64,000 nt of DNA from Candidatus Latescibacterota bacterium (GCA_965204375.1 OZ241986.1:2656001-2720000), one strand, 5' to 3'. Numbered from the stretch's first letter, positions 40,526 through 60,063 are shown. Numbers and translations are program-made. The notes: generated by a model from the letters alone, not told the origin.

Positions 40526-42146
<1,621 letters not shown>

Positions 42147-45544: not shown

Positions 45545-45580
45545 GTGCAGAGGCTCATAGCAATTCTCATTGGAGTCATC

Positions 45581-46015
45581 ATGGCACAAGCAGAAATTGG
45601 CGACCGCGTCCAGATTTACTACAAGGGCATCCTGGAAGACGGAACCATAGCCGAAGGTACACCTGAGAACGAACCATTTGAATTTACAATGGGGGACGAA
45701 TCTGTAAAAGATATATTCACGCGCCTTGTAAACGGCATGGAAGAAGGCGACTCTCGCACGGTGATCCTATCTCCGGAAGATGCGTTTGGCCCCTATAATC
45801 CCGACTTTGTAATCGAAGTTGCGCGATCAAAATTCCCTCCTGATGCACTCCTCGAAAAGGGAATGCGCATGGAAGTACAGTCCGACCCCAATGGTACACC
45901 CATCGAAGTATCCGTCAAAGAAATAACATCCCAAACCGTTACATTAGATGGCAACCATCCCTTTGCGGGAGAAGAAATTACTATGACGATTCAATTGTTA
46001 GAGATTGTGGTTTAG
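45581..46015 (+). CDS. FKBP-type peptidyl-prolyl isomerase (SlyD/SlpA-like, no His tail)
   Basis: YKGILEDG, PEDAFG, LDGNHPFAG. Confidence 0.9.
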   Translation: MAQAEIGDRVQIYYKGILEDGTIAEGTPENEPFEFTMGDESVKDIFTRLVNGMEEGDSRTVILSPEDAFGPYNPDFVIEVARSKFPPDALLEKGMRMEVQSDPNGTPIEVSVKEITSQTVTLDGNHPFAGEEITMTIQLLEIVV

Positions 46016-48406
46016 TTGTACGAACGCATATCCGATGGAAAGGAACTTAGCAAAGTGAAAATAGATGAGACTGCACAATTCTGGAGAACTAAAAAACTTA
46101 GCGTCCGTGCATCCAATTGTCTGGCAAAAGCAGATATTGCAAACGAACAAGAGCTAATCAAAAAATTCACAACCCTTGATAGTCTAATTGCTCTCAGAAA
46201 TTGTGGCAGAAAAACAGCCGAAGAGATATGGAAATTTCTCACAAACTTAAAATTTGTCTCCAACTACGATCAGGAAACCGAAATTACATCGTTCAATTCG
46301 AGCAATAAGTATTCGCCCCAAACGCAATCGGTCTTTATCCCGCTTCTGAACATAAAAGTATCTGGTCAAACATGGGAAGCTCTTCAAAAAATTCCGGTCA
46401 ACAATATCCTATGGAGTGTTCGAACTCAAAACATTCTCCTTGTGCAAGGCTTCAAAACACTTGCCGAGATTGCTGAACTTTCCGCCAAACAATGGCTCAA
46501 ATTTAAGAATTTCCGACGCAAATCTCTGATCGAGATTCAGGAGACAGTCAATAGAATTATAGAAAACCCTGATATGTTTAATCCAGATGATGAGCATTCT
46601 GATCTGGATCCTAATCATTCTGTTAAATCACAATGGTTCTTTATACCGCTCTTAAACATAAAAGTATCTGTTCGCACATGGGCAGCTATTCAAAAGACTC
46701 CCGTCAACAGTATCCAATGGAGTGTTCGAACAAGAAATGTGATCAAGCAGCAGGGACTACAACAACTTGCCGACCTATGCCAATTTTCATCAGAGGAATG
46801 GCTCAGTTTTAGAAACTTCGGAAGTACCTCTTTGACTGAACTTCAAGTACGCTTGACCAAAACAGTCAAGCAACTTGGAGCCAATCTTGATATGCTTGAC
46901 CCGACCGATGAGGATTCTGATCCACGTCCTGAACATTCTAGCAAAGAGCAACCGCCGGTCTTTATCCCACTTCTGAACATAAAAGTATCTGGTCAGACAT
47001 GGATAGCTCTTCAAAATAGATCTATTCATCAATTAACCTGGAGTGTTCGGACCCAAAATATTCTCCTTGCACAAGACTTCAAAACACTTGCCGAGATTGC
47101 CAAACTTTCTCCCAAACAATGGCTCAAATTTAGAAATTTCGGGCGCAAATCCCTGACCGAAATTCAGGAAACAGTCAATAAAATTATAGCAAATCCCGAT
47201 GTGCTTGATCCGAAAACTGAGTATTCCGTGGAAGTATCACAGATTCAGACACTGACTGAACTCGGTCATGTGGTTTTTCAACGCCTGCAAATTCGCCAAC
47301 AGGAAGTTGTTAAATACTACCACGGTTATGACGAAACACCTAAAAACTTACAGCAAATTGGTGAATTACTTGGGTTTACTCGTGAGTACGTCAGACAAAT
47401 TAAGAAGACAGTCAACAACAAACTCAATCAGGGCGTGGACAATTATCTAATCACAACCACCATCTTCCGTCTTTTGAGCAAGTCTATCCGCTATATTCTA
47501 TCACAGTATGGCGGATTCTGTTCTGTCGAAAAACTCCAAGAAATTATTCGTCAGCGGTTGAGATGGGGAAATAGCGAACAGTGGATTATAAACTGGTTTA
47601 ATGAAGCATTCGGCGAGGCGTGGATATGCTCAGGAGCAGACGATTATAAAATTGTTGATGGTGTCTGCTATCTGAAATCGGGAGAATCCTTTCAGGACTT
47701 TTTAATACAACTCGCATCGAGACTCCAACATTACGGTTATCGACCATTGGCATTGGAAGAATGCCAAAATCTCATTGCAAAAATGGACGGAGCAGTATAC
47801 AACTGCGACAGCAGTTCAATAGCTTTCGATTCAAGTCGGTTGCTCGATGTAATTACCAGCTATCCCAGCTTAAAAGTTTATCGGTATGGTAAAACACACA
47901 TCGGACTAAAAGCATGGACCTGGTTCAATCCTGAAAAACCAATGACTGCCGCAGGACAAGCTTCACTCATCGAATGGTATCTCCGAATGACTAATGAGCC
48001 AGCCACGGCAAAAGAGATTGCCAATGGGATAGGGAGCCAACTTGGCAATTTCAGGTTGACGTCTTTCGACGTTGCCGATATTTGCGAAAAACACCCCTAT
48101 CGCTTTCAAGTTGATGACAATGGTGCCTACGGCTTACACCTTTGGGAAGAATCTTCAAAATATCGACAAGACCTCACAGAATTACTTTCAGATGAACCAT
48201 TATCTATTGAACAGATTGTAGAGGTATTATCCGCCCCAGAACCGGCTGATACGTTGCTAATTGTTGCAGCATTAAACTTTTCAGATTCGTTTGTAGAAAC
48301 GGTGCCTTTCGAGTGGGTATTAAAGCCACAGACGGGCACTATTAAAACGGAAGATGATTTCGATTATACCAATCTTACTTTTGAAGACTTAATACCTAAA
48401 TTATGA
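46016..48406 (+). CDS. Protein with 4 RNAP alpha-CTD-like repeats, sigma70 region-4 HTH and HARE-HTH-like C-terminus
   Basis: LSVRASNCL...RNCGRKTAEEI plus three WSVRTxN...NFxxxSLxE(I/L) repeats; RQQEVV...NLQQIGELLGFTREYVRQI; RFQVDDNGAYGLHLWE; start may be GTG 46055. Confidence 0.8.
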   Translation: MYERISDGKELSKVKIDETAQFWRTKKLSVRASNCLAKADIANEQELIKKFTTLDSLIALRNCGRKTAEEIWKFLTNLKFVSNYDQETEITSFNSSNKYSPQTQSVFIPLLNIKVSGQTWEALQKIPVNNILWSVRTQNILLVQGFKTLAEIAELSAKQWLKFKNFRRKSLIEIQETVNRIIENPDMFNPDDEHSDLDPNHSVKSQWFFIPLLNIKVSVRTWAAIQKTPVNSIQWSVRTRNVIKQQGLQQLADLCQFSSEEWLSFRNFGSTSLTELQVRLTKTVKQLGANLDMLDPTDEDSDPRPEHSSKEQPPVFIPLLNIKVSGQTWIALQNRSIHQLTWSVRTQNILLAQDFKTLAEIAKLSPKQWLKFRNFGRKSLTEIQETVNKIIANPDVLDPKTEYSVEVSQIQTLTELGHVVFQRLQIRQQEVVKYYHGYDETPKNLQQIGELLGFTREYVRQIKKTVNNKLNQGVDNYLITTTIFRLLSKSIRYILSQYGGFCSVEKLQEIIRQRLRWGNSEQWIINWFNEAFGEAWICSGADDYKIVDGVCYLKSGESFQDFLIQLASRLQHYGYRPLALEECQNLIAKMDGAVYNCDSSSIAFDSSRLLDVITSYPSLKVYRYGKTHIGLKAWTWFNPEKPMTAAGQASLIEWYLRMTNEPATAKEIANGIGSQLGNFRLTSFDVADICEKHPYRFQVDDNGAYGLHLWEESSKYRQDLTELLSDEPLSIEQIVEVLSAPEPADTLLIVAALNFSDSFVETVPFEWVLKPQTGTIKTEDDFDYTNLTFEDLIPKL
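46334..47210 (+). repeat. Three ~310-bp intragenic repeats encoding alpha-CTD-like units
   Basis: TTTATCCCGCTTCTGAACATAAAAGTATCTGG-type unit at 46334, 46640, 46961; copies 1 and 3 most alike. Confidence 0.9.
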
Positions 48407-50046
48407 AAGGTTCACATCGCATGGTTTTGCCACAACATCAACAACCCATAACTATTCGACTTGCACGGAAAGCAGACATTGAAGGCGCGAAACGAATTGC
48501 GGACCAAAACCGATCAGAATTGGGATTTGTCAACATCGCCATTTTACAGGTAGCACAAAGCAAGGGCTGGCTACTTGTTGCAGCCGAATGGGAAGATCAG
48601 AGAAAGCATGATATGGTCATTGGCTTTGCAAACTTCCGAATTAGACAGGATAGAAATGCAACGCTGTATGAAATAGCAGTAGCTGATACACACAGGCGCA
48701 CAGGTGTCGGTACCCGTTTACTGAGCGAATTAATCCGACGTGTTCACCTTGCAGGAGGACAATATATTCGTCTCAAGTGCCCTGACGACCTAGATTCTAA
48801 TCAGTTTTACCAAAAATGCGGATTTCGGCATGTCGAAACGGAACAAGGGAAAAAAAGACGACTCCATGTGTGGCACTACCATATCCCCCCGACGCACGGC
48901 AAAGAGATAGAAACTTTCTCGATTACTTCACCTAATTCCATGGTTGATGAGAGGGAGACAAGGCATCCCATTGGATGGGAGGTCGAATCTCACATACCCG
49001 CGCATTTCTACGCTTCTTTGACTGTTTCACCGGATCAAATGAGAACATTGCACCACCTCTGGCATGAACATGCACACAATTTTGATTGGAAATTTGGCAA
49101 ATCGAATCCATTTCAACGAGTACTCATCTCGCCTGTCGTTGCTAGCAAGCAGACCTTTGATTTTGTGAGAGAACTAAAACGGACGGGTGAAACGGAAGTA
49201 GCCATGTTTGATTCTGGTGGCTATTTCGTCCAAAAGGGAGATATTTCTTACTACGATCTACATCGAAAACTCTATGAATGCTATAAGCGAGAGGATTGGG
49301 CGGATATATACGTTTTACCAGATAATCCGCCACTCAGCAAAGATTCGCTGAGTTCCGCTGAAGCGAAGATAAAACAAACTGTTGAAGGTAGCTTGCGCCT
49401 TTATAATGACCTTTCCGACACAATTCAGCAGCGGGCGATGCCCGTCGTTCACGCAACGAAAAGTGAACATCTCGACTATTGCCTGCGACATTACAAAAAT
49501 TTTAAAAAAATTGGGTTCGGCTCATTTCCCACAAGTGGGACTTCGAACTCTATCAACCGATTGAACATCAATGCACTGATGATTCTCCAACGGCTGACTC
49601 GAATGCTGAATTCTGACGGTGTTAAAATACATACTTTCGGTATTTCAACACCGCCCGCAATCTATCTGCTGTCATTGGTCGGTGTGCATTCGTTTGATTC
49701 CAATGGATGGATGCGCTCAGGTGGCTATGGCAAGGTCTTCCTACCATTTATGCGGGGTTATATGGTCACTTTTAATTCTCGAAATAATGGGAGTTTGAAT
49801 GAAGCGGAATTTAAATTATGGAAAGAAAACATACAGCATGATTGTCCGTTCTGTGATTCTTTTGATCGGCTTTCCAACAACCGATGGGATCGGATTATGC
49901 ACAATTTAATCGTTATGGCAGAATTGGAAACGCATCAGCGAACACCTCAAATGGATATGTTACAAGAGTTATCAGGAGCTTACTATCGTATGTCGGAAAG
50001 CTTAATAGGTGAAGACTTGTGGCCTATTAGTAATCACGACCTTTAA
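48403..50046 (+). CDS. GNAT acetyltransferase fused to a TGT-fold (DpdA-like) transglycosylase
   Basis: GNAT: YEIAV..HRRTGVGTRL, SNQFYQKCGF. TGT: MFDSGGY, VLPDNP, MPVVH, IHTFG, SFDSNGW, HDCPFC...HNL. ATGA overlap with upstream gene. Confidence 0.85.
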   Translation: MKGSHRMVLPQHQQPITIRLARKADIEGAKRIADQNRSELGFVNIAILQVAQSKGWLLVAAEWEDQRKHDMVIGFANFRIRQDRNATLYEIAVADTHRRTGVGTRLLSELIRRVHLAGGQYIRLKCPDDLDSNQFYQKCGFRHVETEQGKKRRLHVWHYHIPPTHGKEIETFSITSPNSMVDERETRHPIGWEVESHIPAHFYASLTVSPDQMRTLHHLWHEHAHNFDWKFGKSNPFQRVLISPVVASKQTFDFVRELKRTGETEVAMFDSGGYFVQKGDISYYDLHRKLYECYKREDWADIYVLPDNPPLSKDSLSSAEAKIKQTVEGSLRLYNDLSDTIQQRAMPVVHATKSEHLDYCLRHYKNFKKIGFGSFPTSGTSNSINRLNINALMILQRLTRMLNSDGVKIHTFGISTPPAIYLLSLVGVHSFDSNGWMRSGGYGKVFLPFMRGYMVTFNSRNNGSLNEAEFKLWKENIQHDCPFCDSFDRLSNNRWDRIMHNLIVMAELETHQRTPQMDMLQELSGAYYRMSESLIGEDLWPISNHDL

Positions 50047-50056
50047 CGGAGAAACT

Positions 50057-50899
50057 ATGGCACGGTCACACATCTTAAAAGGATTTTCAGATTTGGAGTC
50101 GGCATTGTGGGTTCACAAATACTACCCCGGACTTACAATTCGGCAAATGATCAAAAGAGCTTTGGAAAACGGTTACTCAGTAACAGATACCGCACGTTAT
50201 GAAGCAGTTCAGCTATTAAGCGAGTGGGGATTGGCGGATGGAAAAGGCCGATCATTAACTCCCGAAGGCCAGGCTTTCTATTCTCTATGGGAAACAAAAC
50301 GAAGTACCGCAATTGATTTTTTACACGGACGACAATACGGCTTATGGACCCAAAATCACCCCGACCAAAACATCGCTTCGTGGGCATATAAAAACATCTG
50401 TGACTACCTGTGGACACAGCAAACGCTTCCAGACAAAGATCGAGACCTGGTGTCTTACATCAATGATCTTCGTACTTCCGACGAAGTGGTGATTCCACCG
50501 GATACGGGTAATGCGTTCTCCAATAAGTCAATTAAAGACGCTTACGATTGGCTCCTACCATTAGATCCACCTGTCTTAGCTAACGGAGGAGTTGAGCACA
50601 GATCACTTAAAGACGCGATATTCACACAAAGAGCATTCTGTTCGACATTACTTTTTATGATGGGACTCGGTTATATTGTGCGAGAATCTGACACGGCATT
50701 TGGGGATCTGGTCAAAATTGACGATACGCGAAAACAGGCCATTTGTCGCTTCTGTCTCATCAGCGAAACCGGTTTCGATCTCATGCTTGACGAGGCACTA
50801 CGTCAGGTCTCTTACTCGTGCCTTTCGGTACAGCGGGACTGGGACGGGATTTACATGGTGTTGAATCAAGAGCCTGAGGTCAGGGACTTTATTGATTGA
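50057..50899 (+). CDS. Hypothetical winged-helix protein (BrxA-like position)
   Basis: GGAG SD then ATG 50057; LLSEWGLADGKGRSLTPEG wHTH-like pattern. Confidence 0.55.
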   Translation: MARSHILKGFSDLESALWVHKYYPGLTIRQMIKRALENGYSVTDTARYEAVQLLSEWGLADGKGRSLTPEGQAFYSLWETKRSTAIDFLHGRQYGLWTQNHPDQNIASWAYKNICDYLWTQQTLPDKDRDLVSYINDLRTSDEVVIPPDTGNAFSNKSIKDAYDWLLPLDPPVLANGGVEHRSLKDAIFTQRAFCSTLLFMMGLGYIVRESDTAFGDLVKIDDTRKQAICRFCLISETGFDLMLDEALRQVSYSCLSVQRDWDGIYMVLNQEPEVRDFID

Positions 50900-50910
50900 A
50901 ATGCTCGAAA

Positions 50911-51117
50911 ATTGCGATCCATTCCCTTCAAGAAGCGATCAACTATGAAGACGAAGAGGACGCTTGATTGCATTGAGATGAATGCCTTGGGCGGAACAAA
51001 TCTACAATCAAATCGCAAACCTGACACTCGAAGAACAACTAACTTTCTGGCAAGAACGACCCAAGTTGCAGTGAAAGCATCATGAAAAAAATGAGACACA
51101 AAACATCTACAAATTAA
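50911..51117 (+). pseudogene. Frameshifted copy of 60090-60303
   Basis: ATGAAGACGAAGAGGACGCTTGATTGC vs ATGAAGACGAAGAAGACATTTGATTGC; frame lost after about 13 codons. Confidence 0.85.
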
Positions 51118-51122
51118 ATTCG

Positions 51123-51656
51123 ATGCTCTGGCAATCTTACCATAGAAAACTGCTTGCATTGGCGGAAACCAGCGAGACTTTGACAGTTTCTCAGCAAACG
51201 GTCTGTCAGTTTTTGCGACAAGAGATTGGAGACTATCAGCAGCGTATCAATCTCTGGGGAAATCCAGGAGTCGGTAAAACGTTTCTCGTTCACCATCTCC
51301 ATCACTGTGCAGAAGGTCTCTATTTTTCATCTGTGGAAAATCGTCCAAGCACAGAAATTTCCCCAAATTCAGTGGTTATCATTGATAACGCACCATCTGA
51401 CCGAAGTTTGACGCGTTCCACCTTTGGGGATACGCTTTGGGCTGGCGCATCATCGGTAATTCTGGTAACACGCCAACCAATTGATGATGCGGTTCGGAGA
51501 ATTGAGTTGGCCCTGACAGATAGAGATAGGGCGCAAATTGAGGATGTGATGGGTAGGCTTTTCTCTCATTTGCCACCAGATAAGGTGCGCGATTTTGAAC
51601 GCTACCGCTCAGGAATTTGGGAACAACTTAAGGTGTTAGTAGAACAGGCGAGATAA
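51123..51656 (+). CDS. Small P-loop ATPase (BrxB-like position)
   Basis: INLWGNPGVGKT (Walker A), VVIIDN (Walker B), VILVTR. Confidence 0.75.
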   Translation: MLWQSYHRKLLALAETSETLTVSQQTVCQFLRQEIGDYQQRINLWGNPGVGKTFLVHHLHHCAEGLYFSSVENRPSTEISPNSVVIIDNAPSDRSLTRSTFGDTLWAGASSVILVTRQPIDDAVRRIELALTDRDRAQIEDVMGRLFSHLPPDKVRDFERYRSGIWEQLKVLVEQAR

Positions 51657-51693
51657 AACATAGGCAAAATCCTATCGGGAGAGGATAATATAT

Positions 51694-54600
51694 ATGGCTT
51701 TAGAAGAGATCCGTCAGAAAAGAACTGTGATTGATACGCCAAGAGCATCAGACCTCGCGGCGAGACCCGACGAATGGGAAAACCGTTTTCAATTTCACGT
51801 CTCAACGCATGTCACGCTTGCAGATATGACCGATAAGTGGGATGCCATTCTTAAAAATCTCCTACAAGGGCGTTCGGCAACCGGACTCATCCATGCTGAT
51901 ACAGGATATGGCAAAACCTCAACAGCAGCCGCACTTTGGCATTATGCCGAAAAACGTGATGTAGTCACTGTGCCACCTTTTGCGTGGAATAGCATTGCTG
52001 ACATGCTCATCGCAACGCACGGTTGGGTCTGTCATCGCTTGAAGGTGACCAGACCGGATCTAATTTCTGATTTAGACCAAGAATATAAAACGCTGATTGC
52101 AAGTAGTAATGAAGATAGAGCGCTCAGAATAAGCCAAGAAGAAGAAGTTCCACTCGATTATGCTCGAAAGTCTGTCCAGTCCCTCAAAGCAAGGGGAGAT
52201 TTAACGGATGAGGTTTCCGCGAATCGTCTCATTGACTACCTGCTAAAGGCAACTTCAACGGTTCTTGAGGCAGACTACAAAGGGTTGCTTATTCTGCCAG
52301 ATGAGTTCGAACTTTTTGCCAATACGAACCCAGACATCGCCAAGAATTTTTCTGAACTCAAAGATTTTATTTTTTCGCTCTATCAAGAAGAGAATCTCCC
52401 AGTCGGCTGTGTGGTTCTGACCTACCGCCGAACATTTTCAACAATCCAAAACAGGGAACCTCACATAGTCGCACGTTTCAACCAGCCTCCAGGGAGTTCA
52501 ACGGACCTTGAGCAAGAATATGGAAAAATTGAAAACGGCAAATCTTTCGCCCACGAACTTTGGGAAAAGTTATCTATTACTTGTGACCTATCCAACGAGG
52601 AGCAAAATGCTATTGATCCAGATGTGCTGTTTGCCCTCGGACAATTTTTGGGGCATCAACGCACAACCCAACTGATTAGTGGCCCCAGGTCCGTTGTCGC
52701 GACGTTGCAACGAGCAGCTATTCACTACACTGAAACGCAACAGCCATATTCAATTTTCGATTTTTGTAAAGATTATATCTCTCAAGGCATCATCTGCTTC
52801 AACAACCAAGAAATCGACGCGGTCAAAGCCTATACCTCAATCATGAGCCAACCCATCATCGACGGTAACGAGGCGAGGCAACAAGTCGTCAAACTCCTAT
52901 GCATCTGTCCAGATGGCGTGCCGGAGGCACTTTTCAAGAAGCACAACATTTCTGATAAAGATCGCGCAGCAGTTGTGAATAAGTTATTGGGTACACACGT
53001 TATTAGAAAAATCATCGGACCGACATTAACCCACTACAAGGATGATCTGCAGGCAGGCGACGCACTCATTGAACTCCTAAAAGTCCTGAGGGATCAGTAC
53101 AACCCCGCAAGTCCAGAAACGCATCGCGCCGCTGTCAGGTCATTTGCAAATTTCATTTTACCCGAAATCTTCACTCAGACTGTAGGAGCATCCTTTACTG
53201 GTTGGGGAGGACTGAAAAAGATGGAAGGAGATATTGAACCGATATTTCAGGCTGCCTTATCGGGCAGTTCTCTCCGAGATTATCCTGATCGGACACTGAC
53301 AGTCCATGTTGGCACTGAGGAATTCCAAGAAATTAGCGGTGCCTATCGTGAAAGCCAGTTGTTCACCTCCTTTATTCTTAATACTCAGCAGGATAAGCAC
53401 ATCCCAAATACCTGTGACATTCATGCAGACAAGGTCTGTTTTCACCTCAACATCTCTGAAGCTATCGACAAACTAGAAATCCCAAAAGATATTGGCAAAC
53501 TCGGCGATCTCTTTCTCCCCGAGTCTGTTACCCCTTCGCTACTCTTGTCGATGCTCGACTTCTTTGCTCAAGAAACCACTCTTGCCCAAATCAAGGAGTT
53601 AAAACAGGACGCGCAGGTGCAACTCTTGGAAACCCAAATTCGTAACCAATTGATCGGTTACTTCTTCTCCGCTGAGGTCAAGAAAAGTGCTGTATCACAA
53701 CAGGCAGATTTAGCACAAGTGCCTGCAGGGAAAAATTTTGTTGAACGGGCTTTAGGTGTACTGATACGAAAAAAATTCAAATCATATCGTGCCATAGCGA
53801 TCTCACATCAGTGGAAAAAAAATTTGGGGATCTACATGCAGGTATTGAGAGACGCCGAAAATCTCGGAGTAAGGAGAGGTGAGGAACCGGTTGAAATGAT
53901 TGGCAGAGATGTGCCAAGGTTGTTTAATGTTGGTCAGCACACCACTTTTTCTAATACCTTCTACCCAGACGGTATTTTGCGTGATCTTTTGCTCGTCAAT
54001 GAACTTGACGTCAATGGAAAAACCGTAGCGGAAGGAGTTGAGGTTAAAAATAATCAGGGATCCGTTGCGGTATATCTCAAACTCCATGACATGGAAAAGC
54101 GCATTTTGAAGAGGCTGGAGAAAAGCGAAGAAAGCATCGTCGTTGATGGCAAGAGCACAGAAGCAATAAAATGCCACGAGATTTTCCAGCAGGAAGCAAA
54201 GTTTGGATATCTCAATGATGAAATTGAGGAGTTAATAAAAGTATTGACAGCAAGAGGATTAGTTGACCAAAAACAACAGCAAGGGAGGGATTACCTGTAT
54301 TGTGTTGAGACAGAAATCAATTTCGCCGAACTGCAAAGCAAATTCCAACGGCTTGAGGAAATTGAGGCACTGGCAAAATCAAATGGCTTCACCCCGGAAA
54401 GAGAAGGGAATAACTCGCTATCATCGGTTGGAGCAGATTTGCAGACAACCGGCATTGAGTTCGATGAAGTTCGCAAGGATTCATTACGGCAAAAACTCAA
54501 TTCCATTGAGCACGCTTTCACAACGCAGTGTGCAAGGTGGCTGGATACGGAAAAACAACGAGCCAATCAGAAACGCCATGAAATTGAGCCGTTGCGCCTT

Positions 54601-55779
54601 GATATTCCTAAAGTACTTGATGAAAAAACGGGACACCCATTGACAGAGTTTTCGACACTCCTGTTTAATAATATTCGCAGTGAGGTCAGGAAAGCGTATA
54701 CAGCTATCTCTGATCAAGTTTCCGCTTTACAGAATGAAGTCAAGAACACACTAAACGGAAAGTTACAAAAATACTACATGGAGGGTAGAAGTTCTGAAAC
54801 AGCAATTGACGTTGCGGCACAACTTCGGGACTTCTGCGGCGTGATTGATACAAAAATCGGTGTACTGCGGACTTCTCAAAAAAAGGCTGAACAACTTTAC
54901 ACATTTTTTGAGAAATGGCGCACGCTTGCCAGACAGATAGAAAATGATCGGCAAATGATGCACGATGCAAACTCCAACGATGCTATCAACAATCTTATTG
55001 GCCGGTTAGATACAGAACAGCAACAAATCAAAAAACATCTCGCTAATCGGACATTGAGTCTGAGCCAAGTCCTTGAAAATCATGAACACTTCGCCAAACG
55101 ATTCTTAGAAATCAAGGATGAATACGATCAGATTACTGCTAACCGGAGGGATGAATTTATCAAATTCCAAGCTGAAATTGAAAAGGAACTCAATGAATTG
55201 CTTGAAAAGCCTCATATCGGAGAACCCTACAATCCGTTAGACGAAGATGGATCCTACCGCCGAGTCCAGGAAAAAGTAGTTGAAAGAATTCAAGAATTCA
55301 GTGAAAAGGCAGTTAAGAGTGTTCAAGCCATCATGAGCGATCTGATGAAACCAATCGAAGTTTTCGAAGTCAAGCCCAAGGTCAAAAATGATGCTATGGC
55401 TTTGCAAGAGAAGCTCTCAGCATTAGAAATTCGGATCAGTCATATTGATCGGAAACTAAAACCTAATGGTATTGAGGATCAATTGTCCGAGTTAGTTCAA
55501 TCTTTGCTTAAAATGAGAGAAGAAGGTACAGAGTTGGTGCAGCAATGGGAAGATATTCAAGGTCAGTTAAGATGTGACAAGAGTGAGTTAAGTCCCAAGG
55601 CAAGAGCACTGTTGGACCTGATTGAAATGGATACAGACAAAGATTTCACAGAACTTATTATTGATCTCAGGCAGTCTGGAAATGAAATGTTTGGTTCGAC
55701 TTCAGAGATTATCGAGAGTCTGGAAGAATTATATCAATACAATTGGCTGAACATCAAAATCTCACGCACAACTGCATAA
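51694..55779 (+). CDS. Large BrxC-like P-loop ATPase with coiled coils
   Basis: 1361 aa; ADTGYGKTS, LLILPDEFE, SGPRSVV; long helical C-half; terminal wHTH-like LEELYQYNWLNIKI. Confidence 0.75.
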   Translation: MALEEIRQKRTVIDTPRASDLAARPDEWENRFQFHVSTHVTLADMTDKWDAILKNLLQGRSATGLIHADTGYGKTSTAAALWHYAEKRDVVTVPPFAWNSIADMLIATHGWVCHRLKVTRPDLISDLDQEYKTLIASSNEDRALRISQEEEVPLDYARKSVQSLKARGDLTDEVSANRLIDYLLKATSTVLEADYKGLLILPDEFELFANTNPDIAKNFSELKDFIFSLYQEENLPVGCVVLTYRRTFSTIQNREPHIVARFNQPPGSSTDLEQEYGKIENGKSFAHELWEKLSITCDLSNEEQNAIDPDVLFALGQFLGHQRTTQLISGPRSVVATLQRAAIHYTETQQPYSIFDFCKDYISQGIICFNNQEIDAVKAYTSIMSQPIIDGNEARQQVVKLLCICPDGVPEALFKKHNISDKDRAAVVNKLLGTHVIRKIIGPTLTHYKDDLQAGDALIELLKVLRDQYNPASPETHRAAVRSFANFILPEIFTQTVGASFTGWGGLKKMEGDIEPIFQAALSGSSLRDYPDRTLTVHVGTEEFQEISGAYRESQLFTSFILNTQQDKHIPNTCDIHADKVCFHLNISEAIDKLEIPKDIGKLGDLFLPESVTPSLLLSMLDFFAQETTLAQIKELKQDAQVQLLETQIRNQLIGYFFSAEVKKSAVSQQADLAQVPAGKNFVERALGVLIRKKFKSYRAIAISHQWKKNLGIYMQVLRDAENLGVRRGEEPVEMIGRDVPRLFNVGQHTTFSNTFYPDGILRDLLLVNELDVNGKTVAEGVEVKNNQGSVAVYLKLHDMEKRILKRLEKSEESIVVDGKSTEAIKCHEIFQQEAKFGYLNDEIEELIKVLTARGLVDQKQQQGRDYLYCVETEINFAELQSKFQRLEEIEALAKSNGFTPEREGNNSLSSVGADLQTTGIEFDEVRKDSLRQKLNSIEHAFTTQCARWLDTEKQRANQKRHEIEPLRLDIPKVLDEKTGHPLTEFSTLLFNNIRSEVRKAYTAISDQVSALQNEVKNTLNGKLQKYYMEGRSSETAIDVAAQLRDFCGVIDTKIGVLRTSQKKAEQLYTFFEKWRTLARQIENDRQMMHDANSNDAINNLIGRLDTEQQQIKKHLANRTLSLSQVLENHEHFAKRFLEIKDEYDQITANRRDEFIKFQAEIEKELNELLEKPHIGEPYNPLDEDGSYRRVQEKVVERIQEFSEKAVKSVQAIMSDLMKPIEVFEVKPKVKNDAMALQEKLSALEIRISHIDRKLKPNGIEDQLSELVQSLLKMREEGTELVQQWEDIQGQLRCDKSELSPKARALLDLIEMDTDKDFTELIIDLRQSGNEMFGSTSEIIESLEELYQYNWLNIKISRTTA

Positions 55780-55792
55780 AGCGAGGAGTAAA

Positions 55793-56923
55793 TTGGATAG
55801 GTTGTTCAAATCTCTAAAGAAAATTCCGTGCCTGACAAATCTACCAAAGGAGACGCGAGGACTATGGGAGATGTGCTTGGCTGATATTTGGTGTCCCAGT
55901 TCGCTAGCAGAATGGCGCGAGACTGTTGATGCTCCCTGGGAAGTTCCTGCAAAAGAAGTGCTCTTTGTGAATTTCCCAGAAGCTGAAAGCAAAGAATTGA
56001 CGGACACTTTTGGTTTTCCCAAAATTGACCTTCCTCCGTTACCTCTAATCGAATACGTAAACCAGAAATTACCCGAGCATTTCAACACCTTATGCACAGA
56101 CGACTCGAAACTCTTAAAACAATCACAACTCGTCCAGACAGTTACAGAACGCGTATCATATACGCTTCCCGACATTGTGGTTTTTCTGGTGCTTGATGGG
56201 CTGTCGTTGTACGATGTGGCAGATTGGGCATTCCCAAAATCTTGGCACATGATGTGTGAACCTTGTCTTGTTGATGGACTAAGCGTCACAACGAGTGGCA
56301 TGCGTCGGTTAATCGGGTCGCCACCCTTAACACATCAATTGTTTACATTAGGGTACATGCAGCGGTTAGGATTTTCATATTGGGAGCGTTCTAAAAATCA
56401 GCTTACTAACATACTCTTTTCCGAATTTCCACCGAGCCAATTGTTTCGCATCACAACCTTTGAAGAGATTTTAGATAGATTACAGAATACGGACATACCC
56501 AACCGAACGTTCATCCAAATTGTCCGCACAGGACTCGATGGGGTCTGCCACAATCACAGAGAAAAACCGAATATAGACGCAATGCTTAGTCAACTTAAAT
56601 TGGACATTGAGCAGATTGTCGAAGCGGTTGGCTCATCTCAGAAAACGGTACGGGTTTTTATAACCAGCGACCATGGGATTCTTTGGTTCACAAAACAAAA
56701 AGTGATGCCATTTCAATCGGGTAATACCTCCGCTCGTTATACTTATGCGGAATCCTCACCTGACACATCAAGAATCACCATTGCTGAATCCGGAGAGCCA
56801 GTTACAGTTTTGACAGGCGATAAAGTCATCGCCAGAAAATGTAAAGTGACGGAGTGGGGATTTCACGGTGGGATTTCTGCACAAGAATCTTTCGTGCCTT
56901 TATTCGACATCACACCCATATAG
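55793..56923 (+). CDS. PglZ-like alkaline-phosphatase-superfamily protein
   Basis: FLVLDGLS, SVTT, FITSDHG, GFHGGISAQESFVP; GAGGAG SD then TTG. Confidence 0.85.
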   Translation: MDRLFKSLKKIPCLTNLPKETRGLWEMCLADIWCPSSLAEWRETVDAPWEVPAKEVLFVNFPEAESKELTDTFGFPKIDLPPLPLIEYVNQKLPEHFNTLCTDDSKLLKQSQLVQTVTERVSYTLPDIVVFLVLDGLSLYDVADWAFPKSWHMMCEPCLVDGLSVTTSGMRRLIGSPPLTHQLFTLGYMQRLGFSYWERSKNQLTNILFSEFPPSQLFRITTFEEILDRLQNTDIPNRTFIQIVRTGLDGVCHNHREKPNIDAMLSQLKLDIEQIVEAVGSSQKTVRVFITSDHGILWFTKQKVMPFQSGNTSARYTYAESSPDTSRITIAESGEPVTVLTGDKVIARKCKVTEWGFHGGISAQESFVPLFDITPI

Positions 56924-56935
56924 TAGGTAATTCAA

Positions 56936-58144
56936 ATGGCAGAAGTCAACTTGCGAATCGGTACAGAATACGAAAGCGACGAACTGATTTATATGAATGC
57001 GACAGGGTCACGTGCCGTTTTCATCTGCGGCAAGCGTGGATCTGGCAAAAGCTATACCATGGGAGTTATTATTGAAGAACTGTTCAACCAAGAACAGGAT
57101 GAGGCAACGATTATCATTGCCGACCCGATGGGAATTTACCACACGATGGCTCAGCCAAACGAAACGCAAGCCGATGAAGTCCGTGATGCCGGATTTCTTA
57201 CCAGTGGTTTTCCCGTTCGACTCATTGTCCCAGGCGATCCCTTGATTCGATACGGTGATGCTGCGGTGCTTGCGAAGTTACGAGAAAACGAGGTCGAAGT
57301 CGTTCCACTTGAAATTAACGCCGCTGACCTTTCTCCCGAGGCCTGGTGTGAGTTGTTCGACATTGGCATAAACGACGCAATGGGAATTGTTTTGTGGAGA
57401 GCTGTTGATACACTTCTTGAAAAAGATCAACATTTTACGATTGATGATATTCTTTCGGCAATCCAAGAAGACCGAAAGGCAAAAGATACCTCCAAAGAGG
57501 CTTTAGAAAATCGGCTAACGGTGGCTAATCGCTGGGGAATTTTCGCAAAAGAACCAACTTCGTTGAATGATTTATTTCTCTTAAATCATATTAACATCTT
57601 AGACCTTAGTGTGATTGATGCAGGTACAAAAGGACTACGTAACATGGTACTCGATGTTGTCTCCCGTCGTCTTTTTACTGAACGAACCCGAGAAAGACGT
57701 AGAGAGGAGTTTGGATTATCTACAAAACTACCGCGGGTTTGGCTGGCGATTGACGAAGCTCATCAATTTGTCCCAAAAGGACGAGCCTCGCTCTGCAAGG
57801 AAATGCTCATTCGTTGGGTGAAAGAAGGACGTCAGCCGGGACTTAGCCTCGTTGTAGCAACCCAACAGCCAGCTGCGATTGACCCTGAGCTATTATCACA
57901 ATGCGATGTCATTGTCGCACATAAAATTACAACTTGGGATGACATTAACGCACTTGACCGACTGAGTGCTACTTACATGGAAGGGGACTTAAAGAGCTAC
58001 ATTCGCGATCTGAATCGTAGGGGTGAAGCCTTGTTAGTCGATGATGAAACTGAGTCTGTTGCGACAATTCGAGTTCGCCCGCGATTTAGTTCGCATGGCG
58101 GTGCTGAAATTCAAGAGAAGACTATCCAGAAATTTTTATTTTAA
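56936..58144 (+). CDS. HerA/FtsK-family (DUF87-like) ATPase
   Basis: ICGKRGSGKSYT, DPMG, IDEAHQF, KEGRQPG, ATQQP. Confidence 0.9.
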   Translation: MAEVNLRIGTEYESDELIYMNATGSRAVFICGKRGSGKSYTMGVIIEELFNQEQDEATIIIADPMGIYHTMAQPNETQADEVRDAGFLTSGFPVRLIVPGDPLIRYGDAAVLAKLRENEVEVVPLEINAADLSPEAWCELFDIGINDAMGIVLWRAVDTLLEKDQHFTIDDILSAIQEDRKAKDTSKEALENRLTVANRWGIFAKEPTSLNDLFLLNHINILDLSVIDAGTKGLRNMVLDVVSRRLFTERTRERRREEFGLSTKLPRVWLAIDEAHQFVPKGRASLCKEMLIRWVKEGRQPGLSLVVATQQPAAIDPELLSQCDVIVAHKITTWDDINALDRLSATYMEGDLKSYIRDLNRRGEALLVDDETESVATIRVRPRFSSHGGAEIQEKTIQKFLF

Positions 58145-58201: not shown

Positions 58202-58492
58202 ATGCAAACTCCAACAAAAGAATGGATACACAAGGCGGTGGATGGGCTTCCTGATCAAGAGACAGAACAACTGAAAGACTACCTCGAATTTCTAACCTGG
58301 AAAGCCAAGGAGAAGAAATCATCGTCGGAGCAAAGAAAAAAAAATCCGACTGCGCAACGCATTATCAAAGCAATGGAAAAACCGCCCTATGTCACGCATG
58401 AAGACATCGAATCACTTTTACAAGTGATCAAAGAAGCAAAGCAACCGACACATTTTGAGTCACCCTTTGAGTCGGATGAGCAAAAAGATTAA
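58202..58492 (+). CDS. Putative antitoxin
   Basis: AAGGAG SD; 96 aa; TAATG overlap with PIN gene. Confidence 0.65.
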   Translation: MQTPTKEWIHKAVDGLPDQETEQLKDYLEFLTWKAKEKKSSSEQRKKNPTAQRIIKAMEKPPYVTHEDIESLLQVIKEAKQPTHFESPFESDEQKD

Positions 58493-58911
58493 TGAGCAGA
58501 TATCTATTAGAAACCACAACTTGTAGCCGCTTGATGGAAAATGAACCCACCGTCAAGAGGCATTTGGAATCTCTGACCGATTTGGACTACTCCTTCACTA
58601 TTCCTATCGTCCACGGAGAGATACTGTATGGGATTGAACGGTTGCCAAAAGGAAAAAGAAAGCGAGATATTTCGCAGAGGGCCAATCGTCTTTTTTCCGA
58701 AATTCAATGCGACCCCATTCCAAAAGAAACGGCCACCCACTACGCAAAACTCAAACGGCAAGCCGAGGGACAGGGAACCTCCGTCGCAGAAAATGACCTC
58801 TGGATCGCTGCGACAGCTCTGGCGTTAGATGCGATTCTGGTGACTTCTGATACTGATTTTCAGAGGATTCAGGGATTGTTGGGTTTGCAGTTAGAGGATT
58901 GGACTACTTGA
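58492..58911 (+). CDS. vapC: PIN-domain VapC toxin
   Basis: YLLETT, GEILYG, ENDLWIAATAL, LVTSD.DF, LEDW. Confidence 0.88.
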   Translation: MSRYLLETTTCSRLMENEPTVKRHLESLTDLDYSFTIPIVHGEILYGIERLPKGKRKRDISQRANRLFSEIQCDPIPKETATHYAKLKRQAEGQGTSVAENDLWIAATALALDAILVTSDTDFQRIQGLLGLQLEDWTT

Positions 58912-58932
58912 CGACATATTGAGGATAAAAAA

Positions 58933-60063
58933 ATGTGTTTTAGAAAACCTGGCTGGACCAGTTTTTTGCGACACCAGGGTCCCGATTTTCTCAAATGGAT
59001 TGAGAAAGAAAATATTCTATTGAGGAAATTTGATGCATTAGCGACAGCACTATATTCACTACTAAAGGCTCGTATCAATACAACCGAGGCCGCTCAGGCT
59101 GTCTGGAGAACTGTTCCAGATGTATTGGCTCGCTGTAACGAACAAGACACCTATGAAAAGCCGGGAGCATTTGATGCATACGCTTGGCTACACTTGTTAG
59201 AACGCTATGTCCGAACCTGGCTCGCTCTGGAAAAACTTGTAGAGGCGTGTTGCCTTCCATTAGCAAAGCACGGGATACGTGCTTTGGATGTGGGAACTGG
59301 CCCTGGCCCATCCGCATTTGCGGTTCACGACTTTTACAGTGCTATGACCGAATTTTCTGAACAGACAGGTAATTTGAAATGGAGACAACCCGCCAAGGTC
59401 ACTCCTGTCGATCTTAGCCATAGCACCAATGAGCTACGATATCAGCTCGAACAGTCTCTACGAAAATCGGAAAAAGTAATTATACAATACGACGTCTTGC
59501 CGAATTTTGGCAACATTATGCCAAGGCAAGAACGTGAAGCACTCAGAGAACGTTTACTTTATGAGGACGTGTACTTCGATGAAGACCATGGTGAGGAAGA
59601 ATCTTGGTACTCGGCAGATGAGATCAATCACATAGTTCAATCTTTGCATCGATACCGCCTGATTACATTTAGTAACTTTCTTACTACTGAGGATACGGTA
59701 AACAAATTCAGACCTAATCTTGACGGTATTTTTCGCGATGCCCGTACAGGCACTGTCATCCTGGTACTTGGCGGCAAAGGAAAAAAGTATCAAAAAATAT
59801 ATAAAAAGTTGGACTGCATAGCTGAACAGACAGGATTTCAACGGAAAGTTGTCGAGGAAAGAATATCTGCCAAAGACAGCGGACTCGCCGAACGAATCTA
59901 CAAAGAAGGCTGGCGATTTTACAAACACCTCCAATGCCTCGCTCCAAATGAAAACCCTAAGGCAAGGGAGACACGAAAAGTATGTCAAGAGTTTAAAAAC
60001 GGAAAACTGTGTTTCCATTCCAGTCAGCTACGCGCATACCGAAAATACCGCTATACAATGTAG
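58933..60063 (+). CDS. SAM-dependent methyltransferase-like protein (Rsm22-like motif)
   Basis: ALDVGTGPGP motif I, VDLS, LITFSNFL, GTVILVLG. Confidence 0.6.
   Translation: MCFRKPGWTSFLRHQGPDFLKWIEKENILLRKFDALATALYSLLKARINTTEAAQAVWRTVPDVLARCNEQDTYEKPGAFDAYAWLHLLERYVRTWLALEKLVEACCLPLAKHGIRALDVGTGPGPSAFAVHDFYSAMTEFSEQTGNLKWRQPAKVTPVDLSHSTNELRYQLEQSLRKSEKVIIQYDVLPNFGNIMPRQEREALRERLLYEDVYFDEDHGEEESWYSADEINHIVQSLHRYRLITFSNFLTTEDTVNKFRPNLDGIFRDARTGTVILVLGGKGKKYQKIYKKLDCIAEQTGFQRKVVEERISAKDSGLAERIYKEGWRFYKHLQCLAPNENPKARETRKVCQEFKNGKLCFHSSQLRAYRKYRYTM

Follow-up and report, generated by a model that had tools for sequence, protein, structure and literature searches.

We analysed a 64,000-nucleotide stretch of the genome of a Candidatus Latescibacterota bacterium (GCA_965204375.1, OZ241986.1:2656001-2720000; hereafter the window, with positions counted from its first nucleotide). 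At 48403-50046 on the plus strand lies an open reading frame (ORF) of 547 amino acids that fuses a GNAT acetyltransferase to a domain with the fold of a tRNA-guanine transglycosylase (TGT). It is the second gene of a same-strand operon of seven to eight genes (46016-58144, plus strand) with short gaps or overlaps between genes. In content and size, this operon matches the BREX-Related Capture (BRC) system, a kind already in print (Nucleic Acids Research, January 2026; PMC12839542). The original prediction, made from the sequence of the window, had proposed that the fusion may install an acylated 7-deazaguanine in DNA, and had missed its setting in a BRC-type defence operon. The features of the operon are as follows.

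46016-48406, plus strand: 796-amino-acid protein with four RNA polymerase alpha-CTD repeats and sigma-70 region 4 (Pfam)
48403-48897, plus strand: GNAT acetyltransferase domain of the fusion, residues 1-165 (Pfam Acetyltransf_1)
48898-48987, plus strand: disordered linker, approximately residues 166-195 (pLDDT <50 at 168-193)
48988-50046, plus strand: TGT-fold domain, with D270, D307, D432 and a zinc site of H479/C481/C484/H500
50009-50899, plus strand: 296-amino-acid protein in the DUF4007/BrxA-like slot of BRC, placed by its position after the TGT; label not confirmed
51123-51656, plus strand: 177-amino-acid P-loop NTPase in the "STAND NTPase" slot of BRC (weak AAA_16 and AAA_25 matches); label not confirmed
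51694-55779, plus strand: 1361-amino-acid BrxC/DUF6079-like ATPase (AAA_16, E 9e-4); label not confirmed
55793-56923, plus strand: 376-amino-acid short PglZ-like phosphodiesterase (PADLOC PglZ, NCBIfam BREX_PglZ_2, Pfam PglZ)
56936-58144, plus strand: 402-amino-acid HerA/FtsK-type ATPase (Pfam DUF87, E 3.1e-20; PADLOC HerA, E 4.2e-24)

The two-domain architecture that the original prediction described was borne out, as were its motif positions. Acetyltransf_1 covers residues 58-141 (E 1.7e-12), and four Pfam GNAT families exceed their own cut-offs in this half of the protein. The Pfam TGT family PF01702 matches residues 300-489 weakly (E 2.1e-5; 24.2 bits against a cut-off of 26.3). The AlphaFold model of the fusion has a mean pLDDT of 89.5 and a pTM of 0.89, and the linker differs in length among aligned homologues. 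D270 lies in FDSGG (nt 49210), D307 in the "PD" of L305-P306-D307 and D432 in SFDS (nt 49696). These belong to a set of residues (F269, D270, S271, G272, G273, P306, D307, H410, D432 and S433) that is invariant in 119 of 119 aligned homologues. The variant zinc site, H479-x-C481-x-x-C484...H500 (nt 49837-49902), is kept in at least 90% of them. In a profile-profile alignment to bacterial TGT, D270, D307 and D432 fall on TDSGG, fDEC and mFDC, and the H/C/C/H set falls on the CxCxxC...H zinc site; alignment to the archaeal TGT profile agrees on the placement of all these motifs. The acetyl-CoA motif HRRTGVG, which the original prediction had called intact, is present; among 87 fused homologues its sole invariant position is G103, and the first glycine of the motif varies. 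N133, Y136 and an LKC motif (L124-K125-C126) are also invariant in that set.

BRC was defined by comparative genomics alone. As described in the main text of the paper, it comprises seven components (PglZ, a DUF6079/BrxC-like ATPase, a STAND NTPase, DUF4007, HerA/FtsK, GNAT and TGT) and occurs in 45 taxa, with HerA/FtsK universal in the family, GNAT and TGT in a subset, and the GNAT on occasion joined to the TGT in one protein (PMC12839542). The model given there centres on HerA-mediated capture, with a base "perhaps restricted to dPreQ0 alone". In the window, HerA, PglZ, GNAT and TGT were confirmed by family models. The PglZ-like protein scores under the curated cut-offs of both PADLOC (E 6.5e-6) and NCBIfam (BREX_PglZ_2, E 1.2e-6), and is therefore a divergent member (Pfam PglZ, E 0.0022).

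The remaining slots are assigned tentatively, by size and position. A homologue of the 296-amino-acid gene directly follows the TGT gene in 69 of 73 related loci (tblastn; described below); Pfam found no match in 11 of 11 members tried, and protein-atlas comparison offered leads only, to DpdG-like clusters at 0.88 and 0.86. The 177-amino-acid ORF has weak matches to AAA_16 (E 6e-4) and to nSTAND3 and NACHT (E ~0.1), and its place is kept across loci. One in 12 homologues of the large ATPase has a weak BrxC_BrxD match; its atlas neighbours are BrxC_BrxD or DUF6079 families (0.88-0.96), and its size and position fit the BRC slot. Pfam did not confirm the DUF4007 and DUF6079 labels on 31 BRC partner homologues.

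The first gene of the operon is a recurrent upstream partner beyond the seven published parts. Its stop overlaps the start of the fusion gene, and its product matches RNA_pol_A_CTD in four stretches (E 4e-48) and Sigma70_r4 (E 5e-8) in Pfam, with weak NCBIfam matches to MzaA and PglW. Of the 59 loci with 3 kb or more of sequence before the TGT, 38 have a relative immediately upstream of it on the same strand, and no archaeal locus does; examples (handles beginning with L denote loci, those beginning with G genomes) are L033:394-2300 and L040:6434-9985. Some relatives add sigma region 2, TPR or HARE-HTH domains, and the Poribacteria version is reduced to 86 amino acids with a single alpha-CTD. 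The main text of the BRC paper has no mention of alpha-CTD or RpoA, nor its BRC section of sigma (PMC12839542). Because the protein is built of RNA polymerase pieces of the kind targeted by phage takeover factors, a role as a decoy or sensor is conceivable, as a matter of speculation.

Outside the operon, an FKBP isomerase gene (45545-46015) abuts it upstream, and tblastn found no match to this gene in the 73 related loci. Directly downstream of HerA lie a PIN-domain ORF (139 amino acids) and a 376-amino-acid ORF without an assigned family (58492-60063), followed further on by a MORN-repeat ORF and polA (60964-63729).

Family placement of the TGT domain

A search of the PDB with the single whole-protein sequence returned GNATs only, and a profile of the TGT domain reached DpdA and the archaeosine TGT weakly. 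Foldseek and a first structural pass were dominated by Zymomonas TGT entries, with DpdA unseen; a wider search showed DpdA. Structural comparison, run on a model of the TGT domain only, gave the following matches.

1iq8, archaeosine TGT: Z 25.6, rmsd 3.0, 298 aligned
3unt, bacterial TGT: Z 22.4, rmsd 3.4, 293 aligned
7ui4, DpdA: Z 21.5, rmsd 4.1, 289 aligned
6fv5, QTRT2: Z 21.3, rmsd 3.7, 295 aligned
9ntn, Cap10: Z 18.1, rmsd 4.2, 268 aligned

Generic TIM barrels reached a Z of at most 14.8. By hhalign, the domain matched DpdA at 96.2% probability (E 2e-9) over only 119 columns, archaeal TGT at 95.7% (E 9e-9) over 262 columns, which take in every catalytic motif as well as the zinc site, and bacterial TGT at 85% (E 6e-6) over 238 columns. 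The curated family models did not claim it: there was no match to the DpdA models NF041059 (E <=0.001) and PADLOC DpdA (E <=0.01) or to the Tgt model TIGR00430, PF01702 stayed under its cut-off as noted above, and TIGR00432 gave 18.9 bits against a 350-bit cut-off (NCBIfam).

As the original prediction had suggested, we placed the domain phylogenetically against DpdA and the bacterial and archaeal TGTs (maximum likelihood, 73 rows, quick search, LG+G4). The TGTs of 42 BRC loci and one viral TGT, described below, cluster together (SH-aLRT 98), apart from the groups of DpdA (100), bacterial TGT (97) and archaeal TGT (87). A sister pairing of BRC and DpdA is weakly supported (74) with long branches and is not relied upon. 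The domain has the TGT barrel of a DpdA, with two catalytic aspartates, a base-recognising aspartate and a zinc site, and does not match the DpdA family models. The TGT domain is a distinct subfamily, DpdA-like by context and not DpdA by membership.

A further TGT paralogue was seen in Poribacteria and an Aggregatilineales genome, as ORFs of ~640-656 amino acids that are archaeosine-TGT-like and ArcS-like (G042:C72:77952-85956; G008:C1:3225160-3226026; likewise in G010, G012 and G013). It is neither a BRC TGT nor DpdA, and the G042 copy lies close to YhhQ and QueC.

Could the domain be a further TGT that modifies tRNA, be it of the host or of a phage? To our knowledge, the characterised cellular TGTs other than DpdA and Cap10 all act on tRNA, and the archaeosine tRNA-guanine transglycosylase is the top structural match. 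However, the C-terminal domains of that enzyme are missing here, the ~350-amino-acid domain aligning only to positions 15-353 of the 577-residue chain, and the gene occurs strictly in association with defence genes that act on DNA. Nor is a further copy needed. The original prediction had pointed to a complete canonical tgt nearby, which lies at 40932-42071 on the minus strand (PF01702, E 1.8e-163), and had argued that the fusion is redundant for tRNA queuosine; in agreement, both this genome and all the other host genomes that were examined (50 of 50) have a canonical tgt. We therefore regard a tRNA substrate as highly improbable.

A second comparison is with Cap10, a TGT-fold protein of type IV CBASS that binds a protein-linked 7-amido-7-deazaguanine, as described in a preprint (bioRxiv 10.1101/2025.04.06.647259). 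By analogy, the TGT could bind or transfer a protein-conjugated 7-deazaguanine, or tether a protein to nucleic acid, with the GNAT helping to build the conjugate. Cap10 matches the model at Z 18.1, the 22-residue spacing of H410 and D432 is that of H226 and D248 in Cap10, and the GNAT resembles N-terminal acetyltransferases. Yet archaeosine TGT, bacterial TGT and DpdA all outscore Cap10, annotation searches and locus clustering flagged no QueC-like Cap9 or CD-NTase, and the placement of the viral pair in a phage replication module (below) suits DNA modification better. A Cap10-like activity appears improbable.

Coupling of the TGT to a GNAT and linkage to precursor genes

Among 5.8 billion proteins searched, we found 190 homologues, among them fused proteins with as little as 36% identity and TGT-only proteins of ~335 amino acids (~40% identity). 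In species-representative genomes, 73 loci encode a relative. Hosts include Latescibacterota (78-83% identity), a Gemmatimonadetes metagenome-assembled genome (MAG), Poribacteria (~51%), many Chloroflexota, and the archaea Methanocaldococcus, Methanothermococcus and Methanosarcina. Halorubrum sp. SY-15, Halorientalis regularis and Methanocaldococcus indicus are hosts available in culture. The order TGT, 296-amino-acid gene, NTPase, BrxC-like, PglZ and HerA recurs in bacteria and archaea. By tblastn, a HerA-like gene lies downstream in 50 of these 73 TGT-anchored loci, many of the misses falling at contig edges. Within its own genus the fusion is present in 4 of 20 other species, and it was found in 0 of 10 genomes from the other genera of the family, a patchiness typical of defence islands.

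We also anchored the search on HerA, which yielded 462 relatives in species-representative genomes; of the best 80 loci, which were examined, 53 are complete in flanking sequence. Both GNAT and TGT are present in 48 of the 53 and neither in five, and a GNAT alone was seen in none. Family-specific hidden Markov models (HMMs) recovered both genes in 44 and left four loci, all archaeal, with a TGT and no HMM-positive GNAT. These four carry divergent GNATs, detected by Pfam (L130, L151) or tblastn (L140, L144). The GNAT is placed variably: fused, directly upstream of the TGT (as in L151) or directly after HerA (as in L130). That it moves and is nevertheless retained argues for a task common to GNAT and TGT.

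The neighbours of the TGT-less loci, considered as substitute modifiers, proved to be an unrelated assortment (SPFH, MazF, radical-SAM with lipoate ligase, FAD oxidoreductase) and were rejected. Separately, seven loci (L045, L062, L063, L065, L071, L020 and L052) have GNAT, TGT and a BrxC-like gene with no PglZ or HerA by tblastn. Several of these L045-type loci share a DEAD/Helicase_C protein (~1600-1950 amino acids) and proteins of ~440 and ~580 amino acids; L156 grouped with them, and PglZ and HerA are also present there. The L045-type loci may point to a second system that hosts this modification module.

The pair also occurs in a virus. A tblastn search of 50,697 phage records with the TGT domain gave two matches at E <=0.01, one of them convincing: the Thermocrinis Great Boiling Spring virus (BK013347.1; 33.6% identity, E 5e-41). 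Here, a 135-amino-acid acetyltransferase gene overlaps a 257-amino-acid TGT gene, and the pair adjoins genes for the sliding clamp, a helicase, a PD-(D/E)XK nuclease and DNA polymerase in this tailed virus. There are no BRC restriction genes or que genes among the annotations of BK013347.1. Both viral proteins match the BRC-specific HMMs (GNAT, E 3e-40; TGT, E 4e-83) with their catalytic motifs kept, and the viral TGT nests within the BRC clade of the tree (SH-aLRT 98). The passages of the virus paper that were searched do not discuss the GNAT and TGT genes. A scan of IMG/VR gave three loci, namely the same Thermocrinis virus, one BRC-like locus and one cut at a contig end, so viral spread of the pair looks rare. 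A virus that carries the modifying half by itself is what would be expected of a protective DNA mark.

These observations bear on whether the TGT might act instead on invading DNA, where, as a sensor or effector, it would remove guanine or exchange bases in phage DNA captured by HerA. Such a role would fit the capture model of the BRC paper as set out in its main text (PMC12839542), and the five complete loci without GNAT and TGT indicate that a self-mark is not strictly needed. A phage would not, however, be expected to keep a self-damaging enzyme in its replication module, and the link to precursor synthesis and transport described next suits steady marking. We accord this alternative a small chance.

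The original prediction had noted that the precursor must come from elsewhere, since no folE, queD, queE or queC lay in the window. Consistent with this, the que queries used found none there (folE was not searched for), and QueC, two tandem QueF-like genes, a QueD-like and a QueE-like gene are present elsewhere in the genome. The tandem QueF-like genes lie at G000:C1:4156712-4157346 (L078:1486-2234, minus strand); the second lacks the catalytic cysteine (ALYAVT versus SLCPKT).

Across 50 host genomes, full-length QueC was found in 26, QueF in 20 and neither in 22; canonical tgt was found in all 50 and QueA in 41. A YhhQ-type transporter is present in 15 of the 22 hosts that lack QueC and QueF, against 3 of the 26 QueC-positive hosts. 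The same 22 hosts retain tgt (22/22) and mostly QueA (18/22). Salvage of the precursor by these hosts is plausible and, because they keep QueA, the salvaged base should be preQ1. We considered whether the absence of QueC from 24 of 50 hosts refutes the use of a 7-deazaguanine; this was ruled out by the tgt and QueA counts and the YhhQ pattern.

The most direct link to the precursor comes from archaeal loci. In Halorubrum (L130) the order is QueF, TGT, 296-amino-acid gene, NTPase, BrxC-like, PglZ, HerA, GNAT, QueD (PTPS), radical-SAM QueE-like and QueC. QueF abuts the TGT in Halorientalis (L154), lies between HerA and GNAT in a Methanotrichaceae MAG (L131), and is 8.5 kb from HerA in Halovenus (L144). 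In each of these four genomes the locus-linked QueF is the sole QueF match, and QueF was absent from four of four archaeal control genomes searched. The archaeal copies retain the catalytic cysteine and the E(S/L)(K/R)SxK motif of the bacterial copy, a motif which we take to separate NADPH-dependent nitrile reductase (QueF) from the archaeal QueF-like amidinotransferase. In addition, YhhQ lies directly after HerA in Chloroflexaceae (L046) and near the TGT in Halovenus (L144). This linkage of QueF, other que genes and YhhQ points to preQ1 over preQ0. Since a primary amine is the sole extra functional group made by QueF, the amine of preQ1 would be the natural target of the GNAT.

The QueF-less methanogen loci have a different neighbour, a gene like the D-component of 2-hydroxyacyl-CoA dehydratase (HGD-D) together with a BcrAD/BadFG-type ATPase gene. 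The two precede the GNAT in Methanococcales and follow HerA in Methanosarcina (L151:795-2545, also in L060, L068/L140 and L066; L123:11187-12832, also in L067).

The BRC paper, in its main text, reads the base as possibly dPreQ0 alone (PMC12839542). In an alternative along these lines, the TGT would insert preQ0 only, and the GNAT would leave the base alone and acetylate a protein instead (for instance a system component at its N-terminus, or a protein of the phage) in a regulatory or effector role. The top structural and NCBIfam matches of the GNAT are indeed protein N-terminal acetyltransferases of the RimI/Ard1 type, and methanogen hosts with QueC and without QueF still keep the GNAT. Against this, a sole QueF in or near four archaeal loci would be pointless with a preQ0 base, the GNAT was never seen without the TGT, and the virus has GNAT and TGT alone, with no BRC protein for the GNAT to regulate. 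We consider this alternative unlikely, although it is the most serious of those raised here.

Proposed function and comparison with known systems

We propose that the GNAT-TGT fusion is the self-marking module of a BRC-type system, which acts on DNA, uses preQ1 and N-acylates it; we put the probability of this reading, taken as a whole, at roughly 0.4. The less demanding claim, that the TGT inserts a 7-deazaguanine into DNA, is probably correct. In the proposed scheme, the TGT would take guanine from host double-stranded DNA via a covalent Asp432-deoxyribose intermediate and put in a 7-deazaguanine, most likely preQ1 (7-aminomethyl-7-deazaguanine) supplied by host QueC and QueF. The GNAT would move an acyl group, most simply acetyl from acetyl-CoA, to the aminomethyl nitrogen, either on the free base or after insertion, so that the product would be 7-(acetylamino)methyl-7-deazaguanine in DNA. 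The BrxC-like ATPase, small NTPase, PglZ and HerA would then act on unmarked DNA.

The idea of an acylated preQ1 goes back to the original prediction and is the best-supported reading. It gained comparative support from a GNAT that was never found without the TGT and from QueF as the sole copy in or near archaeal loci; the DNA substrate, the preQ1 base, the acetyl group and the restriction logic are what we infer. Apart from the BRC paper, full-text literature searches found none that connects a GNAT with preQ1 in DNA. The main text of the BRC paper has no mention of QueF, preQ1 or queuosine, and its supplements may list some of the neighbours given here (PMC12839542).

Several observations weigh against the acylated-preQ1 reading. 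The absence of GNAT and TGT from 5 of 53 complete loci, in which no obvious replacement modifier was seen, implies that the restriction half can exist without the mark. For the 22 of 50 hosts that lack QueC and QueF, DNA marking would hang on a scavenged base. Methanococcales and Methanosarcina hosts (G039, G045-G047) have TGT and GNAT with no QueF at E <=1e-5, so that preQ1 is not obviously available to them. The viral TGT (L080:4357-5130) lacks the zinc subdomain, and there is no room for the missing part, as the next gene begins 185 nt later. The models that define DpdA do not recognise the TGT domain. The nearest solved relatives of the GNAT are the protein N-terminal acetyltransferases Ard1 (4r3k, Z 20.8) and RimI (5isv, Z 20.4); this is weak evidence, as more than 40 further GNATs match at Z >=16.7 and the resemblance is not specific. 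Finally, support for BRC is wholly computational, both here and in the main text of PMC12839542.

A broader hypothesis, which we put forward tentatively and hold to be somewhat doubtful in full, is that the mark placed by BRC on cellular DNA is N-acyl-preQ1 (carrying acetyl in most lineages), which would be the ninth 7-deazaguanine of natural origin, written by a non-DpdA TGT clade together with a dedicated GNAT. In the QueF-less methanogens, the HGD-D-like/BcrAD pair may stand in for the nitrile reductase or provide an uncommon acyl-CoA, and the bacterial alpha-CTD/sigma-4 protein would be one more part of the system, such as a decoy for phage factors directed at RNA polymerase.

If the proposal is true, sponge-associated bacteria, Chloroflexota and several archaea would contain an unreported DNA base, 7-(acylamino)methyl-7-deazaguanine. 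Marking of DNA by 7-deazaguanine would then have evolved a second time outside DpdA, and would have taken the place of a methyltransferase within BREX-like restriction machinery. Marks of the 7-deazaguanine type prevent cleavage by restriction enzymes, and in metagenomes they interfere with base calling from nanopore and SMRT data.

Among known systems, DpdA shares with the BRC TGT the fold, the H-x-F-G and (S/I)-F/I-D-S motifs and a defence context, and is the best TGT-type PDB sequence match of the TGT-domain profile (E 0.008). In contrast to DpdA systems, family searches found no ParB-like DpdB or DpdC among the operon proteins, and the BRC paper reports likewise in its main text (PMC12839542). 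The first zinc ligand is histidine in the fusion, whereas Latescibacterota DpdA has CxCxxC. The same genome has a true DpdA 3.1 Mb away (345 bits, NCBIfam; E 4e-98, PADLOC), a 582-amino-acid protein with an N-terminal extension in the island G000:C1:5838000-5857900 (L193). This DpdA is followed by a 715-amino-acid unknown protein, a 607-amino-acid HerA, a helicase of the UvrD/GajB-like type and a nuclease resembling Cas4; neither DpdB nor DpdC was detected by PADLOC at L193, which looks like a second, non-canonical deazaguanine defence island.

Phage DpdA systems offer a similar logic, in which preQ1 is inserted, its aminomethyl nitrogen is then decorated, and QueF marks the branch; dPreQ1 is methylated by DpdM or formylated by DpdN, as described in PMC10516641. 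The proposed decorator here is a GNAT and not an enzyme of the PurN-like or DUF3109 type, the genes belong to a defence operon of cells, and an acetyl or acyl product would fall outside the eight natural DNA 7-deazaguanines listed in that paper, none of which is acetylated (PMC10516641). With two matches among 50,697 phage records, one convincing, the BRC TGT is not close to any phage DpdA subfamily. The archaeosine TGT (1iq8) is the best structural match, but its C-terminal tRNA-binding domains are missing here, and archaeal BRC hosts keep their own copy of that enzyme. Cap10, too, has the TGT fold, belongs to an anti-phage system and contains a catalytic His-Asp pair, as described in the preprint (bioRxiv 10.1101/2025.04.06.647259); it differs in its lower Z and in its Cap9 and CD-NTase partners, neither of which was flagged here in general annotation searches or locus clustering.

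The closest likeness is to BRC itself. The operon matches its component list, with the ATPase, small NTPase and ~290-amino-acid DNA-binding-type slots assigned tentatively, and the two agree in a GNAT that is sometimes fused, in having no DpdB or DpdC and in occurring in both bacteria and archaea. The locus in the window differs by its upstream alpha-CTD/sigma-4 protein, and the sampling differs as well, with 45 taxa given in the main text of the paper (PMC12839542) and 73 TGT-anchored loci and 462 HerA relatives here. To the published system, the present analysis adds the finding that GNAT and TGT are strictly coupled, the pair borne by a phage, the genomic link with QueF, preQ0 synthesis genes and YhhQ, the separate TGT clade and the alpha-CTD/sigma-4 partner.

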